DNA of 64,000 nt from Somniosus microcephalus (GCA_052327205.1 CM126211.1:119350001-119414000); one strand, 5' to 3'. Positions 2,270 through 33,593 are shown, counted from the first letter of the stretch. A program made the numbers and translations. The notes: generated by a model from the letters alone, not told the origin.

Positions 2270-3850
2270 TGCTTCACTTCACACTTCTCTGCGTTAAATT
2301 TCATCTGCCATGTGTCTTCCCATCTCACCAGTCTGTCTGTCCTCCTGAAGTCTGTTATGATCCTCCTCATTGTTTACTACATTTCCAAGTTTCGCGTCAT
2401 CTGCAACCTGTGAAACTCTGCCCTGTATACCTAAGTCCAGGTCATTATTATATATCAAAAGAGCAGTGGTCCTAATACCGAGCCCTGGGGGACACCACTG
2501 TATACTTCCCTCCAGTCTAAAAAATAACCATTCACCACTAACTCTCTGCTTTCTGTCCCTTCGATAATTTTGTATCTCTGCTGCCACTGCCCCTTTAAAC
2601 TCATGGGCCTAGAAATTCGCTGGGCTGCGCCACCAGTTAGCGCCTAAAGAGGGCACTCAGTGGCTTTAGCGCCACTGGCCGTGTCTCCCGCGATATTTAG
2701 CTGGGGCGCTAATGGCAGCATTAACCTGTTGCGCTGCACCGCCTCCGATGATGTCATCAGTGTGCGCAGCGCCCCGCTACCACCCCGATCTCGATATTTG
2801 GCAGCGACCGCCTCTGTAGCGCCGTTCGCAAATGGCGCCGGGTTCACGGGGCCTACCTGTGGCGGCAGTGGCACAAATTAAGGTGGAGGTGTGGGGTGGC
2901 CATTTTTTTCAGCGGCCGCCTGCCAGCACCTCCGTCCCCGGCCTCCTGATCGCCCCCCGTGGCATTGCCAGCTGTTTTCCAAGAGCCCGGCACTTCTCCT
3001 CGGTGCCGGGCTCCTTTGCCGGCACTCGCGATCTCTGATTGCGCTGGTGCAGGCCCCTCCCCCTTAGGAATGGGAGGAAGGCCTGCAGTACCGCAGCGCG
3101 CCGTGCCGCAGTGTGTGGTGCTGTGGCAGGTTGCGCTGCGATATTCAGTTTCAGCGCCCTAAGAGGGACGCGGAGCGCCTCGAGCCTCGCCCCATGTCCC
3201 TCTTGGGGCGCTCAAGCTGAATTTCCGGCGGTCGCTACTGCTCCAAACGCTGCGCTAAATCCGGCGCCCAGGCGAGCTTGGCGCCCCGTTTGCAGCTCCA
3301 CCCAATTTCTCCCCCATGGACTTTAACTTTGCTAACAAGTCCATTATGTGGTACTTTGTCAAACGCCTTTTGAAAGTCCATATACACATCAACCGCACTA
3401 TCCTCATCAACCCTCTCCGTTACTTCATCAAAGAACTCAATCAAGTTAGTCAAACAAGATTTGCCTTTAACAAATCCATGCTGACTTTCATTTATTAGCC
3501 CATACTTTTCCAAATGCCAATTAATTTTGTCCTGAATTATTGTCTCTAAAAGTTTCCCCACCACCAACGTTAGGCTGACTGGTCTGTAGTTGCTGGGGTA
3601 ATCCCAATCCCATTTTTTAAACAGAGGTGTAACATATGCAATCCTTCAGTTCTCTGGCACCACCCCCATACCCAAGGAGGATTTGAAGATTGTGGCTGGA
3701 GTCTCTGCAATTTCTACCCTTACTTCCTTCAGTAACATAGGGTACATCCTATCCAGATCAGGTGACTTTTCTACTTTGAGGACTGCAAATCCTTTAAGTA
3801 CCTCCTCTTTATCTATCGTGGTCATTTTTATCTCCTGGAAGTTGCTTTTT
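2270..3850 (-). mobile_element. Degenerate CR1 LINE RT fragment split by a MITE
   Basis: Minus-strand peptides SQHGFVKGKSCLTNLIEFF, YMDFQKAFDKVPH and KSPDLDRMYP. Confidence 0.9.
2606..3315. mobile_element. Harbinger-type MITE
   Basis: Ends GGCCTAGAAATT / AATTTCTCCCCC with a 3-bp TSD (ATG). GC-rich with repeated TAGCGCC/GGCGCTA; interrupts a CR1 fragment. Confidence 0.75.
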
Positions 3851-4589
3851 ATTACCTTCTTTATGGGGGCGGGGGTGCAAAGTGAAATATCCCAGAATAA
3901 ATTGTCCCTGAATTGACCTAGGATTTTCTTTTGCCTCTTCCAGGAGACTACATGGTGGGGGACATTGGGCAACATGTTGCCTAGTTGCAGTCAATGAAAC
4001 AGCTGGTCTTTTACAAAAAGGAAACAGATTTTGCATGTGGGTGCAAAGCATCTCGACATCCCTTCATTCGATCTTCTTTTCTTGATCCAACAAGCACAAA
4101 TCTATGGAGTTACCCATGGGGAACATTGTTGTCATCAATTATATATTAAAAACAGTGAGTTGTCTCAACATTCCAACAGTATTTGCACCCATATGTGGTG
4201 CTATGAGCTTAACGTTATGTGACATATCATCTAAAACAAAAATATAGAAACCTATCTTGGGAACCATGCAGGTGGAAGAATCAGCTTTAGAAAAACTCAA
4301 GGATAATGTACAACTCAGCCTGAAAGTGGAAAAAGGATCATCAAACTGCACAAACTGGAACTCAGAATGAAGCCATGCACCAATCAGAAAACCACCCAAA
4401 CCTGTTCATTGGAGACTGACTGAAAAAAAGCGGACCATAAAGAATTAATAAAACTCCTGGCCTTCCAAACAAAAGTCAGATAATGACCAACCTTCTTGGC
4501 AAAGGCAGAAATCCTTTGCCACAAGCCCCTACTGAAGCAAAACTCCCCCACCCTCACAGAGCCGACAATCAGTGAAATCTCGTAAATCA

Positions 4590-10753: not shown

Positions 10754-12664
10754 TTTTCCCACAAGCAGCACTCAGGAGCATGAAATCACAAGTGACAGCA
10801 AATGGGGACATGGCGCCTTTAAATATACCGGCAACAAACGCGTCATCAGATGACCTCACCAGACCTGCACCTTGTAATTGGGCTGGGTAACACGCACGGC
10901 AGGCTTAACAAGCCCAATTAACGTCAAATTATTTTCACAGAGCGGCTGAAGCCAGGAGCGGAACCGGGACCCACCAACTACCTCTCCCGCTGCGATCCCA
11001 CCTCCGCTGGCAAAATCCAGCCCATAGTAACTGCAGGTTCCCAAGGTGGAATGTGAGATTATGGTACTAGAGGGATACAGAATGAGACAGGCTGGTACTG
11101 GAGACCCAGAGGTTCCAAAGGATAGACGCCAACCAGATATCCAAAGAAGGTGCTACGTGGTAAGGTATCTGGTACTCACTGGTACCACATATTGTAGTCA
11201 TCCTCATTAGGTAAGCTATCGATAAGATGTATATCTACTTATTCGTTCTATCTTATATGGATTTGTATTTAATTCTTCCTTTTTGCTGTAATCATGTAAT
11301 GGTTCAATGTACACCAACACCTGAAAGTTTAAAAGGAGAGATTTTTAGCAGCTTCGGTAACTACACACCCAAGAGCTGGCAAGATAGAACAGAATTAAAA
11401 ACACACTGTTTTGATGAAAGGTCATTGACCTGATATGTTGGGCTTGATTTTATTAACAGAGGCGGGTTGAGGGCGGGCCCGCTGCTCGGCAGCTTTCCGA
11501 CCCGCACCCGACTCTGCCTCCCAGCACTTCCTATTTTTGCTTCATTGGCCTCGTTGCAGCCGACGTGCGGGTCCCTCCAGGCAATTGCTTGGAGGATGTC
11601 AGTTTCTCGCATCTGATAACGCGTTGTTTGTTTGAAAATTTAAAGGGGCCATGTCCCCTTTGCAAAAAATGTAATTGGGAGACCATATGACAGAAACTTG
11701 TTTGAGAGTAGGTGCCAGATCATGTCAAAGACTTTAGAGATGTTTAAGGCAATGACTTACCAAAATGTTCAAGAAGAGTTCCAGAGGTGCATAATAAAGA
11801 CAAGAGGAATGGCAACTGCAAGAACTGGACTGGTCTGAGCTTTCAACGTGATAGATAATTTGAGAACTGAAACCTCCATAACTTTAGAAAAGCAAGAGCA
11901 ATCAGTAGTTGGAAGGGTTGTAGGGATCAGTAAACTCTACTGATTCAGGATTAATTGTTTAACCTGGCTAACCTAACAAATATATGGAAGAGAATAGAGA
12001 CGCAGGTTTTGCTTCCCGAGAAAGTAGATCTGCATAAGGAAACCAGTCTAACTGTGAACATGAGAAAGATGTTTGGAAAATGGTAGGACATAACAGGGAC
12101 ATCAGAGTGAATATAAGTACAATGATTTCCTTTTGAAGTAGAAAGTGTAAGAAAGAAATTGGAAGGAGGACATAAAATTCAGTCAGAAACAATCAAAGGC
12201 TACATTACTGGAGATGGATTAAAATTAAAGGAGATGTTGTGAATGCAGGATAATAAGAAATAAGAGCAGGTGCAGGCCATATGGCCCCTCGAGCCTGCAC
12301 TGCCATTCAATAAGATCATGGCTGATCATCGACCTCAACTCCACTTTCCCGCCCGATCTCCATATCCTTTGATTCCCCTAGAGTCCAAAAATCTATCTCT
12401 CTCATCCTTGAATATACTCAAAGACTCAGCATTCACAGCCCTCTGGGTCAGAGAATTCCAAAGATTCACAACTCTCTGAGTGAAGAAATTCTTCATCTCA
12501 GTCTTGGAAATAGCCTACCCCTTATCCTGAGACAACCTCTGTGGTTTATAGTTGCTAAGGTCTTTTCTGGTGTAGCGGGGACTGTTGGTAAACCATACAA
12601 GCGCCTTAGAGTTTATCTTTCATTGGTGATAGTGAATTAATTTAAATTAATTAAAGGGTAAGTC

Positions 12665-13615
12665 ATGTCAGGACAGCCCAGCCCCGTGTTATGCTCCTCT
12701 TGCTCTATGTGGGAATTCAGGGACGCTGCCTGTGTCCCTGACGACCATGTGTTCCAGAAATGCATCCAGCTGCAGCTACTAGCGGACTGCATTGCGGTGC
12801 TGGAGCTGCGGATGGATGGGCTTTGGAGCATTCACGATGCTGAGAGGGTCGTGGATAACACGTTTAGTGAGGTGGTCACACCGCAGGTAAGGGCTGCACA
12901 GGCAGAAGGGAAATGGGTGACCATCAGGCAGAGCAGTAGAGGCAGGCAGGTAGTGCAGGGGACCCCTGTGGCCATCCCCCTCTCAAACAGGTATACCAAT
13001 TTGGATACTGTTGAGGGGGATGACTTACCAGAGGAAGGCAGCAGCAGCCAACTTCCTGGCACCAGGGGTGCTTCTGCTGCTCAGGAAGGGAGGAAAAAGA
13101 GTGCGAGAGTAATAGTGGTAGGGGATTCTATCGTAAGGGGAACAGATAGGCGTTTCTGTGGCCATAGACATGACTCCAGGATGGTTTGTTGCCTCCCTGG
13201 TGCCAGGGTCAAGGATGTCACTGAATGGCTGCAGGGCATTCTGAAGGGGGAGGGTGAACAGTCAGAGGTCGTGGTTCACATTGGGACCAATGACATGGGT
13301 AGGAAGAGGGATGAGGTCCTGCAGCAAGAATTTAGGGAGCTAGGTAGCAGATTAAAGAGCAGGACCTCAAAGGTTGTAATCACTGGATTACTCCCGGTGC
13401 CACGTGCTAGTGAATATAGGAATAGGAGGATAGAGCAGATGAATGCGTGGCTAAAGAGTTGGTGCAGGAGGGAGGGCTTTAGTTTCCTGGATCACTGGGC
13501 CTGCTTCTGGGGAAGGTGGGACTTGTACAAGTCGTACGGTTTGCACCTGAACCAGAGCGGGACAAATATCCTTGTGGGGAGGTTTGCTAGCACTGTTCGG
13601 GGGGGTTTAAACTAA
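12665..13615 (+). CDS. CR1 ORF1p (N-terminal Cys finger, coiled coil, SGNH/GDSL esterase-like domain)
   Basis: Open 316 aa; CSSC..KC, VVGDSIVRG, HIGTND and GLHLN motifs. Confidence 0.9.
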   Translation: MSGQPSPVLCSSCSMWEFRDAACVPDDHVFQKCIQLQLLADCIAVLELRMDGLWSIHDAERVVDNTFSEVVTPQVRAAQAEGKWVTIRQSSRGRQVVQGTPVAIPLSNRYTNLDTVEGDDLPEEGSSSQLPGTRGASAAQEGRKKSARVIVVGDSIVRGTDRRFCGHRHDSRMVCCLPGARVKDVTEWLQGILKGEGEQSEVVVHIGTNDMGRKRDEVLQQEFRELGSRLKSRTSKVVITGLLPVPRASEYRNRRIEQMNAWLKSWCRREGFSFLDHWACFWGRWDLYKSYGLHLNQSGTNILVGRFASTVRGGLN

Positions 13616-16587
13616 AATGGCAGGGGGTTGGGAACCTGAGCAGGGAGACAGAGGAAAGGGAAACAGGGATAAGAGCAAAAGGTAGGAAGGAGAAAAACAA
13701 AAGTGGCAGTCAGAAAAATCAACGGTTTAAATCAAACGTGGCCACAGTAAATAATAATTCTAATAGGTCTAAGAGCGTTAAAAAAACAAGCCTGAAGGCT
13801 TTGTGTCTTAATGCGAGGAGCATTTGTAATAAGGTGGATGAATTGGCTGCGCAAATAGAGGTAAACGAATATGATTTGGTTGGGATTACGGAAACGTGGC
13901 TCAAGGATGGCCAAGACTGGGAACTCAACATCCAGGGGTATTCGATATTCAGGAAAGATAGGCAAAAAGGAAAGGGAGGTGGGGTAGCATTACTGGTTAA
14001 AGAAGGGATTAATGCAATTGTAATGAAGGATATTAGCTCTGATGAGGTGGAATCTGTATGGGTAGAATTGAGAAATACTAAGGGGAAAAAAACATTAGTG
14101 GGAGTGGTATATAGACCTCCCAACAGTAAGGCGAAGGTTGGGGATGGCATGAAAAGGGAAATTAAAGAAGCGTGCAATAAGGACACAGCAGTCATCATGG
14201 GTGACTTTAATCTACATATAGATTGGGCCAACCAAATTAGTAACAATACTGTGGAGGAGGAATTCCTGGAGTGTTTACAGGATGGTTTCCTGGACCAATA
14301 TGTCGAGGAACCAACCAGAGATCAGGCCATCTTAGACTGGGTATTATGTAATGAGAAAGGATTAATTAGCAATCTTGTTGTACGAGGCCCCTTGGGTCGG
14401 AGCGAACATAATATGATCGAATTCTTCATTAAGATGGAGAATGAAGTAGTTGACTCAGAAACTGGGGTCCTCAATTTAAATAAAGGAAACGACGATGGCC
14501 TGAGGAGCGAATTGGGTAGGATTGATTGGGGAATGGCACTCAAAGGGTTGACGGTGGATAGGCAACGGCAAGCATTCAAAGACCGAATGGATGAGCTACA
14601 GAATTTGTTCATCCCAGTTTGGCATTAAAATAAAACAAAAAAGGTGACTCAACCGTGGCTAACAAGGGAAATTAGGGATAGCATAAGATCCAAGGAGACG
14701 ACATATAAATTGGCCAGAAAAAGCAATAATCCTGAGGATTGGGAGCAGTTTAGGATTCAACAAAGGAGGACAAAGGGATTAATTAAGAAAGGGAAAATAG
14801 AATATGAGAGTAAGCTTTCAGGGAACATAAAAACTGACTGTAAAAGCTTTTATAGATATGTGAAGAGAAAAAGATTGGTGAAGTCAAGCGTAGGTCCCTT
14901 GCAGTCAGAATCAGGGGAATTTATAATGGGAAACAAAGAAATGGCAGACCAACTAAATTCATACTTTGGTTCTGTCTTCACAAATAACCTCCCAGAGATG
15001 CCGGGGAACATAGGGTCTGATGAAAGTGTGGAACTGAAAGAAATCAGTATTTGTAGGGAAATGGTGTTAGGAAAATTGATGGGACTGAAGGCCGATAAAT
15101 CCCCAGGGCCTGATAATCTACATCCCAGGGTACTTAAGGAAGTGGCCCTAGAAATAGTAGATGCATTGCTGGTCATCTTCCAGAACTCAATAGACTCTGG
15201 AACAGTACCCATGGATTGGAAGGTAGCTAATGTTACCCCACTATTCAAAAAAGGTGGTAGAGAAAAAGCGGGGAATTATAGACCGGTAAGCCTGACATCG
15301 GTAGTGGGGAAAATGCTAGAGTCCATTATAAAAGATGTAATAGCAGAGCACTTGGAAAGCAGTGACAGGATCGGACAAAGTCAACATAGATTTACAAAAG
15401 GTAAATCATGCTTGACTAATCTACTGGAATTTTTTGAGGATGTAACTGGTAAAATAGATAAGGGAGAACCAGTGGATGTGGTGTATTTGGACTTTCAGAA
15501 GGCTTTCGATAAGGTCCCACATAAGAGGTTAGCGTGCAAAATTAAGGCACATGGGATTGGGGGCAAGGTATTGACTTGGATAGAGAACTGGTTGGCGGAC
15601 AGAAAGCAAAGAGTTGGAATAAACGGGTCGTTTTCTGAGTGGTAGGCAGTGACTAGTGGGGTACCGCAAGGATCGGTCCTAGGACCCCAGCTGTTCACAA
15701 TATATATTAATGATCTGGACGAGGGAATTGGATGTAATATCTCCAAATTTGCAGACGACACAAAGCTGGGTGGGAGGGTAAGCTGTGAGGAGGATGTCGT
15801 GAAACTCCAGTACGATTTGGACAGGTTGGGTGATTGGGCAGAAACATGGCAAATGCACTATAATGTGGATAAATGTGAGGTTATCCACTTTGGTGGCAAA
15901 AACAGGAAGGCAGATTATTATTTGAATGGCAATAGATTGGGAGAAGGGGAAGTGCAAAGAGACCTGGGTGTTCTTGTGCACCAGTCGCTGAAGGTAAGCA
16001 TGCAGGTGCAGCAGGCAGTTAAGAAGGCAAATGGTATGTTGGCCTTCTTAGCAAGAGGGTTCGAGTACAGGAACAAGGATGTCTTGCTACAGTTGTACAG
16101 GGCCTTGGTGAGACCGCATCTTGAGTATTGTGTGCAGTTTTGGTCGCCTTACCTGAGAAAGGACGTTCTTGCCATGGAAGGAGTGCAGCGAAGATTCACC
16201 AGGCTGATACCTGGGATGGCAGGAATGATGTATGAGGAGAGATTGTGTCGATTGGGCTTATACTCACTGGAGTTTAGAAGATTTAGAGGGGATCTCATCG
16301 AAACCTATAAATTTCTGTCAGGCCTGGACAGACTAGATGCAGGAAGGATGTTTATGATGGCCGGGGAGTCCAGAACCAGGGGTCATAGTCTAAGGATAAG
16401 GGGTAAGCCATTTAGGACTGAAATGAGGAGGAATTTCTTCACCCAGAGAGTGGTGAACCTGTGGCATTCTCTGCCACAGAGGGCGGTGGAGGCCAGTTCA
16501 TTAAATATATTCAAGAAGGAGTTGGATATATTTCTTAAGGCTAAAGGGATCAAGGGATATGGGGAGAAGGCAGGGACAGGGTACTGA
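13612..16587 (+). pseudogene. CR1 ORF2 (endonuclease and reverse transcriptase) with two in-frame stops
   Basis: Single frame from 13612 with LNARS, ITETW, GDFN, SEHN, QGSVLGP and FADD motifs. TAA at 14626 and TAG at 15643. Confidence 0.92.
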
Positions 16588-17551
16588 ATTTGGATGATCA
16601 GCCATGATCTCATTGAATGGCGGAGCAGGCTCAAAGGGCCGAATGGCCTACTCCTGCTCCTATCTTCTATGTTTCTATGTTTCTATGTCTACACTGTCAA
16701 TCCCCTTCAGAATCTTGTATGTTTCAATGAGGTCATTCTTCTAAACTCCAGAGAGTATAGGCCCATTCTACACAATCTCTCATCATAGGACAACCCTCTC
16801 ATCCCAGGAATCAATCTAGTGAACCTGCGTTGCACCGCCTCCAAGACAAGTGTATCCTTCCTTAGATAAGGAGACCAAAACTGTGCACAGTACTCCAGGT
16901 GTGGTCTCACCAAGGCCCTGTACACAATTGTAGCAAGACTTCCTTACTCTTATACTCCAACCCCCTTGCAATAAAGGCCAAATGCAAGAAGAGGAAACAT
17001 CAAAAGTGACAGGTATGGTTTTAAGTGCCTTAGGGGCTACGATGAATTTTGAATCTTCAGGTTTGCATATTATTCATGATGTTGATGTAGCGTAGAGAAG
17101 AAAGAGCAAGGACAAAGATCTATCACTACCATAATATGAGATGGGGTTGTTAGATCCCACACGACATGCCACAAATCCTATCTGTAGTTTCAGAGCTGCT
17201 CACTGGACAGAACTCCATGACAAATACATTCATACCATTGTGAACTCGCAGTGCAGCTAAATTGGGATCTTATCTTGCTGATGCAGCAGCTTCCCAATGT
17301 GCAATCAATGGATTTAGGCTGCTATTGATTAGGTGATCAAGCTATACTTGACCATGGCATCCTTTAATAGTTATAGCCCTTCTAACAACTTGAACTGTGA
17401 TGGAGCAGTAAGGGAAGAAAATTAGAAAAAGGAATTGATTTGCCAAAGTGTAGCGGTAGTTCGGAAGAAAGAAATTATTAAATTGAAGAGTCAGAGAGAC
17501 ACACAGATTGTTAAAAAAAAAGTCTGGTAACTACTACAGGATATCTTAGAG

Positions 17552-31750: not shown

Positions 31751-33593
31751 TGAGCACCGTTCCACTTCACAGTCGCTAGGGGCGCCAGGCGCACAATGGG
31801 GCGGCGCGACTGAAGTTCTGGTTGGGGGCGCACAAAGGGCGTTGCACGAGGAAATGACGTCATGATCTGCGCGCGCAGCTGAGCGCGCGCAAAGACTTTG
31901 CGCCGCCGCTAAATCTCTAGTGAAGTTGGGGCGAGGCGCAGTTCGCGCTTCGCCCGGGTGCAAGCCGCCTAGCGCCCGGAATCTACTCCTCCTAAGGCGC
32001 TAACAGCTGGCGCAACCAACTGAATTTCTAGGCCTTATTTTCCAAGGAGTAGGTAGCCTCCTTATTCCTCCTACCAAAATGCACCACCTCACACTTAACT
32101 ATACTGAAATTCATTTGTCATTTACATGCCCATTCTGCAAGTTTGTTTACGGTAGAATTAATTTAAAGCTTTTAGTTCGTCATGTACAAACTCTATTTTT
32201 TAAAAAGTTACTTGTCAGAAATGACTGGGATATAAAAGAACTGCATAATAATGCATTAACACTTCAGAAACATCACTCAGTTACACGGTTATGCATCGAC
32301 AAACAATCCAAAAGCCCAAGGTAAGCTGAAAGAGGCATATCTATTCGTGCAATTTGTATTAATTTTAACATTTTCAACGTATTAGCCTATCTCTCATGTC
32401 ACTATGGCAATGGCTGCACAAGTAGCAGGAGCAGCGACTTTCCTATGGCGCTGACGTGCTGGACGTCCAGATACGTAATTAGAATATTAATCACAATGCA
32501 ACCAGACAACCAACAAATATAAAGTGCTGTAGTTCTTTAGTTCACAGTATTAAAAAGACTTGAACAAGAACGGGTGTCCATATTTTCAACTTCAATCACT
32601 TCCATTAATAAATTTTATCTTCTTGAGCCAGCACACCCCCCCATGTAACATGTCAGAAATGCAGCACTTATTCACAAGTGCAGAAAAACACATACACAAT
32701 TTGTGTTACCGAATTAAAAACAAAAAGCAGGAAAAGCTATGATTTAACAGAAATAAACATTTATCTTTCTTCCTGGACAGGAGAACCAATCAGACTGACT
32801 TGGAAATGTTTACTAGTATGTTGACGTAAAAATGTTAATTTACGAATTTCGCTAATGTTTTTCTCTCCAACATTCGCCACAATATTTGAGGAGCTAGGAT
32901 CCAAATTAAAAAGCAGAACCTCAAAGGTAATAATCTCTGGGTTGTTACCTGAGCCACGCGCAAATTGGCATAGGGACAAACAGATTAGAGGTTTAAATGC
33001 GTGGCTCAAAGAGTGGTGTGGGAGGAAGGGGTTTCGGTTCATGGGGCACTGCCACCAGTACTGGGGAGAGGGAGCTGTTCCGTTGGGACGGGCTCCACTT
33101 AAACCGGGCTGGGACCAGTGTCCTGGTGAACCGAAGAACTAGGGCAGAAGACAGGGCTTTAAACTAATGAAGGGGGTGCGGGAGGATTCAGCAAAGAGTA
33201 AATTTAAAAGCAGCGAGAGAAATGTCAAGGCTCTAGAGCAGAGTAGGTTTCTGGGTAAAAATAAACACAGTGGGTCAGGAAGGGACAGCGAGAGTAACAA
33301 AGGTAATAAGGCATCAGTGACTAAGGTGACATTAGGGGAAAATAGAAATAAGTCAAAGCTAAAGGCACTATATCTGAATGCGCGAAGCATTCACAACAAA
33401 ATTGATGAATTAACAGTGCAGATAGAAATGATTAGGTTTGATCTAATAGTCATTACGGAGACGTGGTTGCAATGTGGCCAAGGTTGGAAACTAAACATTC
33501 CAGGATACTTAACTTTTAGAAGTGATAGGCAAAATGGAAAAGGAGGAGCGGTAGCCCAATAATAAAGGATGGGATAAAGACAGTAAAGAGAAA

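Follow-up and report, generated by a model that had tools for sequence, protein, structure and literature searches.

How the reverse transcriptase of a CR1-type long interspersed nuclear element (LINE) is translated, when its open reading frame (ORF) lies in another frame from the ORF upstream and begins without a start codon, is the question raised by a locus of the shark Somniosus microcephalus. The window, the whole stretch of 64,000 nucleotides (nt) that was analysed (GCA_052327205.1 CM126211.1:119350001-119414000), holds such an element at about 12665-16690. Its assignment to CR1 follows from the domain layout, the vertebrate homologues and, in part, a 3' tail which we take to be that of CR1; all features described here are on the plus strand. 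ORF1 (12665..13615) encodes 316 amino acids (aa) with N-terminal Cys motifs and an SGNH esterase (Lipase_GDSL_2, E 1.3e-15) and ends in ...GGLN; its closest solved relative is PDB 4C1B (E 5.3e-28), a LINE ORF1 esterase, and its closest named proteins are from cartilaginous fish. ORF2 (13612..16587), which encodes an APE endonuclease and a reverse transcriptase, lies in the -1 frame. This layout, established by domain search, matches that of vertebrate CR1 subgroup 7, whose type IVB ORF1 combines a zinc finger/leucine zipper with an esterase (PMC4120745); ORF2 translation is not discussed in the passages of that account covered here. The window copy itself is dead, its ORF2 being broken by stops at 14626 and 15643. 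The best explanation for the arrangement, and one that we regard as probable, is that CR1 LINEs with an esterase ORF1 use a programmed -1 ribosomal frameshift at U_UUA_AAC to produce an ORF1-ORF2 fusion.

The junction between ORF1 and ORF2

ORF1 closes with GGT TTA AAC followed by the stop codon TAA (13613..13615), which places the slippery heptamer TTTAAAC (13606..13612) in X_XXY_YYZ phase and directly against the stop, as a preliminary description of the locus had reported. That description was also right about the reading frames. The -1 frame is free of stops from 13591 to 14625 and runs open into the endonuclease; its first ATG, at 14023, is codon 140 counted from the heptamer and lies past the endonuclease motifs NARS (codon 69) and ETW (codon 96). 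The ATG at 13617 belongs to the third frame, where it opens 22 codons (13617..13685), and is not conserved in other lineages. The heptamer is joined to the endonuclease by a basic linker (13612..13809) that is stop-free and lacks an ATG in the -1 frame. Codon 45 of this linker (13738..13740) is GTG in 33 of 34 copies of the window lineage and ATG in 24 of 27 copies of a sister lineage. A second in-phase heptamer, G_GGU_UUA (13603..13609), overlaps the first; the form G_GNU_UUA is present in most lineages with DNA at hand and is not implied by frog or turtle proteins that end in CLN, FLN or TLN.

The best 30 copies of the window element all have the same junction, which is therefore not a private mutation of the window copy. 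The genome contains 58,170 exact instances of the pattern of heptamer, stop, 7 nt and GGGG, which are repeat copies rather than independent events, versus 12 of a reversed control; the pattern thus goes beyond chance.

If this junction is a frameshift site, most ribosomes would terminate at the UAA and release the ORF1 protein (ORF1p), and a minority would slip into the -1 frame on U_UUA_AAC, where tRNA-Leu would re-pair with UUU and tRNA-Asn with AAA. The latter ribosomes would yield a fusion of ORF1, linker, endonuclease and reverse transcriptase, about 1,300 aa in length and with a peptide like GGLNLKWQG across the junction. More speculatively, a pause at the adjacent stop codon might aid slippage. 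Among heptamers, U_UUA_AAC is one of those on which mammalian ribosomes shift most readily, according to the part of the review PMC5009743 that was covered.

Conservation of the heptamer and of the downstream frame

Copies were sampled blind to the junction: an upstream coding pattern for DGLHL matched the genome 30,571 times, and the first 100 of these matches were taken. The exact heptamer was found in 81 of these copies, in register in 70 and displaced in 11 by indels that fall mostly within the upstream G-run; 16 copies carry one heptamer mismatch and 3 carry more. To compare lineages, 219 junctions were clustered into seven multi-copy clusters and singletons. Tallies over the 17 lineage representatives are inflated since open frames and exact heptamers guided the choice of the multi-copy representatives, a caveat to be set against the frameshift reading.

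Codon usage was examined in the 8 of 17 representatives that pass a filter for an intact frame and motif and share 48-86% ORF1 protein identity. The terminal Leu is encoded by TTA and the terminal Asn by AAC in all 8 lineages, while none of the 14 other conserved Leu columns keeps a single codon and TTA accounts for only 27 of 230 Leu codons in ORF1. The base before TTA is T in 29 of 29 sequence groups, which are not independent of one another, even though the residue it belongs to varies among G, A and D. Synonymous variation in the heptamer, which would have spoken against a frameshift, is absent across lineages. The heptamer is conserved at the nucleotide level beyond what the protein needs. 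The LN end that these codons give is also widespread, in keeping with a frameshift site. It closes 67 of 107 ORF1 homologues from sharks, rays, a chimaera, a teleost, frogs and turtles, and among 67 homologues with a DGxH motif 60 end in LN, nearly all of them 26 residues from the motif.

It could be argued that ORF1p requires a C-terminal Leu-Asn and that, through shared ancestry, the codons have simply not changed. Codon-invariant columns do occur elsewhere in ORF1: not counting the two terminal residues, they make up 2 of 24 six-fold, 5 of 24 four-fold and 4 of 19 two-fold columns. This explanation is nonetheless hardly credible, given that no other Leu column is invariant, that ORF2s without an AUG are left unexplained, and that identical codons recur in amniote-like loci. 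The latter are three loci with turtle-like best hits (L091, L095 and L102) from a metagenome set of 33, in which the junction GCTTTAAACTR and the G-tract that follows it are intact. Most of the other loci in that set do not reach a junction or belong to other elements; L093 looks decayed and L109 lacks the site. A further locus, L092, pairs an esterase ORF1 with a fish L2-like ORF2 and runs past this point without an LN end, so the esterase fold does not demand LN. The residue before LN gives a test that is weak: E, Q, K, M or W, for which no codon ends in T, occur there in only 2 of 67 homologues, compared with 38 at position -4 and 19 at -5, and are also rare at -6, -7 and -9 (3, 1 and 4). 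A turtle-type query had no match in the shark genome at E 1e-60.

Downstream of the heptamer, the linker evolves fast and what is conserved is the frame rather than the sequence. The linkers of the 17 representatives are 120-270 nt long and share 35% ungapped identity, yet 16 of 17 have a length divisible by three and 15 of 17 are stop-free; each of the other two linker frames contains 2-14 stops in those 16 representatives. Counts per cluster and of unselected single copies give a fairer picture than the chosen representatives. Starting at the heptamer, the -1 frame runs open as far as the endonuclease in 63 of 97, 42 of 53, 8 of 15, 11 of 14, 7 of 8, 1 of 5 and 2 of 4 copies of the seven clusters, and 7 of 10 unselected single copies are in frame (7 of 8 when two with evident insertions are left out). 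For freedom from stops, a shuffle test across 12 lineages yielded a log10 product of -12.4, a value that is inflated because open copies were chosen. The first in-frame Met falls anywhere from codon 4 to codon 74, or is lacking before the endonuclease in 5 of 17 representatives. In the two largest clusters, 29 of 61 and 20 of 41 copies with an open frame have no Met up to about the ETW motif. An in-frame AUG conserved ahead of the endonuclease would have argued against a frameshift, and there is none. Read in the -1 frame, ORF2 is thus open all the way from the heptamer and lacks any conserved start codon. One natural copy, L362, has an intact ORF1 frame of 308 codons and a -1 frame of 975 codons, in which the first Met (codon 74) comes after NARS at codon 48.

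Some copies carry the two coding regions as one frame. ORF1 continues as one long frame in L208, L342 and L373, such open frames being 615-1143 aa long, probably because the G-run preceding the heptamer has gained a base; a shift by +1 was seen in 5 of the 100 sampled copies. A turtle gene model, P0098, joins the esterase to the endonuclease and is probably a broken copy. No esterase-ORF2 fusion appeared among 30 matches in a search for longer ORF2 homologues, which is a weak test.

Within the window, the segment 13580-13635 indicates that ORF1 and ORF2 modules have been exchanged between CR1 lineages with the crossover at the junction. The window lineage is a mosaic of two others, with ORF1 derived from one and the linker and ORF2 from the second; its divergence from the respective lineage is 2.8% over the final 71 nt of ORF1 and 3.5% over the linker. 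Such exchange bears on a further explanation, in which the motif is kept for a non-translational role (recombination or template switching, RNA or protein binding, splicing, or an internal promoter) and ORF2 is translated from lineage-specific AUG or near-cognate codons. The swapping of modules at the junction fits this proposal, as do loose ends of RNA reads at 13599 and 13632-13633 and, in one lineage, an ACTAAC..CAG/G sequence that resembles a branch point and acceptor. The reads come from a related species and from both strands and do not show the element's own messenger RNA. At a depth of about 2,800-4,400 they contain no splice joint at the junction, and the pile of read starts at 13599 coincides with loose ends from another ORF1 type and is not a transcript start. 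Only 4 reads skipped 13723-14146, with non-canonical ends, and splicing at the junction was rejected. Moreover, the motif stays in phase with ORF1 and coupled to the -1 frame even where linkers are unrelated in sequence. A non-translational role is accordingly very improbable, though less so than a constraint acting on the protein only.

Re-initiation as a rival, and a candidate downstream stimulator

The serious rival to a frameshift is termination-coupled re-initiation, in which ribosomes stop at the ORF1 UAA and restart nearby to make a separate ORF2 protein. The restart could be at an AUG where there is one, as in a UAAUG of the SART1 type, or independent of AUG as proposed for L1; SART1 (PMC2699510) and L1 (PMC5009743) are precedents in the portions of those sources covered. 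The ORF1 stop always adjoins the heptamer, as coupling would have it. Sister lineages with an in-frame linker ATG exist, one of them as UAAUG, which the preliminary description had missed. That lineage is represented in the window by a second, decayed CR1 junction (33158..33169), in which the same heptamer is followed by TAATG with the ATG overlapping the stop and in frame. The copies of this lineage (L349-L360) combine a slippery heptamer with UAAUG and offer a natural test case of frameshifting versus re-initiation. On the other side, only 1 of 17 lineages has ATG as the codon that overlaps the stop, the others having AAA, ACT, AAT, ATT, GCT, GTT, GGT or AAG; neither UAAUG nor AUGA of the SART1 type is present at the junction in the window lineage or in 16 of the 17 lineages. 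The UAAUG lineage has itself retained the heptamer, which is exact in 83 of 100 copies among the matches listed (counted by eye). No UGGGA motif, as in a TURBS-like element, stands at a fixed distance, and 2 of 17 representatives lack it altogether. Re-initiation also leaves the fixation of TTA, AAC and the preceding T unexplained. We consider it improbable, but clearly the strongest of the alternatives. A separate observation concerns the L2-like element L092:225-2753, in which ORF2 lies in the same frame right after the ORF1 stop (TAC TGA TAT), making it a candidate for readthrough or re-initiation.

On the matter of a downstream stimulator the preliminary description fared less well. The CAGG..CCTG hairpin that it proposed is weak (-6.5 kcal/mol, z -1.11) and is not conserved across lineages. 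What is conserved downstream is a run of five G (GGGGG, 13623-13627) behind a spacer of 10 nt, so that the run starts 11 nt 3' of the heptamer. Together with a following GGG, this run forms a conserved G-tract (13623..13632) that is a candidate stimulator. Counted relative to the heptamer, nt 18-22 are G in 17, 17, 15, 16 and 14 of 17 representatives, and the tract is about 3 nt closer to the heptamer in 2 of 17. It covers two third-codon positions, and third positions of ORF2 overall are G in 764 of 2,481 cases. Structural stimulators typically lie 5-9 nt from the shift site, while those of arteriviruses and cardioviruses lie at 11-14 nt and the protein-bound motif of PRRSV at 11 nt (PMC5009743, covered part). 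As a conserved linear motif the G-tract falls in the 11-14 nt range of the arterivirus/cardiovirus type. It might fold as a quadruplex: a G4Hunter-type score is at least 1.2 in 14 of 17 representatives, and ViennaRNA predicts a quadruplex, mostly two-tier, in 7 of 17. Natural use of G-quadruplexes in frameshifting was not known as of 2016, according to the covered part of the same review (PMC5009743). It is more speculative to suggest that the stimulator is the linear G-tract itself, as a protein-binding site or a weak quadruplex, rather than a stem or pseudoknot.

Several further points weigh against the frameshift. No conserved structure was found 5-9 nt downstream in 17 lineages (z -1.72 to +1.27), and no shared stem was seen, by single-sequence minimum-free-energy folding, which cannot model pseudoknots. 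Long-range pairing of the G-tract within 3.2 kb was about as stable as that of shuffled queries in 12 elements, the best duplex energy beating all 8 shuffles in only 1 of them. Variants shared among linkers show no synonymous bias (10 nonsynonymous and 2 synonymous, the variants being few), so the evidence that the linker is translated consists of its frame and its avoidance of stops. Some in-frame Met precedes the endonuclease in 12 of 17 representatives, which also favours re-initiation, as does TAATG at the junction of one lineage with 1,048 exact matches. To these is added the sister lineage with ATG at codon 45, the majority letter in the RNA reads of a related species (1,445 of 1,938 and 1,825 of 2,444). 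Junction exchange may homogenise the junction within one genome; exchange of this kind cannot account for the amniote-like loci or for the frog and turtle proteins. DNA from outside sharks is limited to the three amniote-like loci, and no more was obtained from viral contigs (where nine pattern matches were left out) or prokaryote genomes. On balance, the part of the preliminary description that likened the junction to Gag-Pol is supported by the fixation of the heptamer and the lack of a conserved AUG, and the part that named a hairpin stimulator is not.

Other features of the locus and its homologues lie outside this argument. As read from the sequence, the 3' untranslated region (16588..16690) has complementary arms GGAGCAGG and CCTGCTCC and ends in a short TTTCTATG repeat tail. 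The flanking segments 12250-12540 and 16590-16990 resemble, by eye, the reverse strand of another CR1 3' end, and the element is probably a nested insertion. The protein P0010, filed as a Pseudomonas aeruginosa SGNH hydrolase, is 60% identical to the vertebrate LINE ORF1 described here and likely reflects contamination of a bacterial record by host DNA.

Known systems and significance

Frameshifting has already been stated for non-LTR elements. The Dictyostelium elements TRE5-A and TRE3-A are, like CR1, APE-type with two ORFs, and 'require a -1 frameshift' for ORF2 translation according to passages of a review (PMC5911963). They belong to another clade and host and have an unrelated ORF1, and the likeness follows from the review's statement. 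The heptamer class is that of coronavirus 1a/1b and retroviral Gag-Pol, the site of infectious bronchitis virus (IBV) being U_UUA_AAC (PMC5009743, covered part); in those systems, and as proposed for CR1, a structural ORF is fused at low frequency to a polymerase ORF. CR1 differs from them in not being a virus, in showing no stem or pseudoknot 5-9 nt downstream and in having no protease domain found by domain search of the element. The CR1 site would therefore work like a Gag-Pol frameshift but lacks the classical structured stimulator, and is best set apart as a variant. In PRRSV, the linear motif CCCANCUCC, on which nsp1beta and PCBP act, follows the shift site at a distance of 11 nt on its 3' side (PMC5009743, covered part). 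The CR1 G-tract appears to share this spacing and nothing else, being G-rich instead of C-rich and having no known binding factor. SART1, with UAAUG coupling, and mammalian L1, with AUG-independent initiation, also have bicistronic LINE RNAs with ORF2 just past ORF1 (PMC2699510 and PMC5009743, covered parts), and one CR1 lineage has UAAUG. CR1 is unlike both in that 16 of 17 lineages have no stop-start AUG and the junction carries a fixed slippery heptamer.

Searches of the literature, which did not reach the primary CR1 papers, turned up no claim that frameshifting produces CR1 ORF2. The review PMC5009743 treats HeT-A, TART and L1 and does not mention CR1 in the first 300,000 of its 449,034 characters, the covered text of PMC3905857 does not contain the word 'frameshift', and no such statement occurs in the covered portions of PMC11835228, PMC5006619, PMC6609765, PMC4255032 and PMC8665684. 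With TRE5-A and TRE3-A as earlier cases, a -1 frameshift would thus not be new for non-LTR elements; for CR1 it is apparently new, although priority may be unsettled. In the 1997 CR1 papers (Haas; Kajikawa) the ORFs are reportedly close together or overlapping, and the idea of a frameshift may have been raised there.

A much broader proposal is that in all esterase-type CR1 LINEs of jawed vertebrates, among them the repeats that dominate in sharks, reptiles and birds, the reverse transcriptase is produced as part of an ORF1-ORF2 fusion by a -1 frameshift that is more than 400 million years old, is unpublished and is stimulated by a linear G-tract, acting through a natural G-quadruplex or a bound protein of the host or the element, rather than by a stem or pseudoknot. 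Taken as a whole this is tentative, and we think it somewhat more likely to fail in one of its parts than to hold in all.

Translation of LINE ORF2 is only partly settled, and the animal cases that have been studied, L1 and SART1, use re-initiation. An unstructured G-tract could represent a new class of stimulator, and a single genome already supplies natural variants of the site in the tens of thousands. If CR1 does use a frameshift, this would explain the erratic start methionines of predicted CR1 ORF2 proteins and point the way to a functional assay for CR1. For the element itself, the rate of frameshifting would set the ratio of ORF1p to reverse transcriptase, and the reverse transcriptase would be tethered to a self-associating, esterase-bearing ORF1p.

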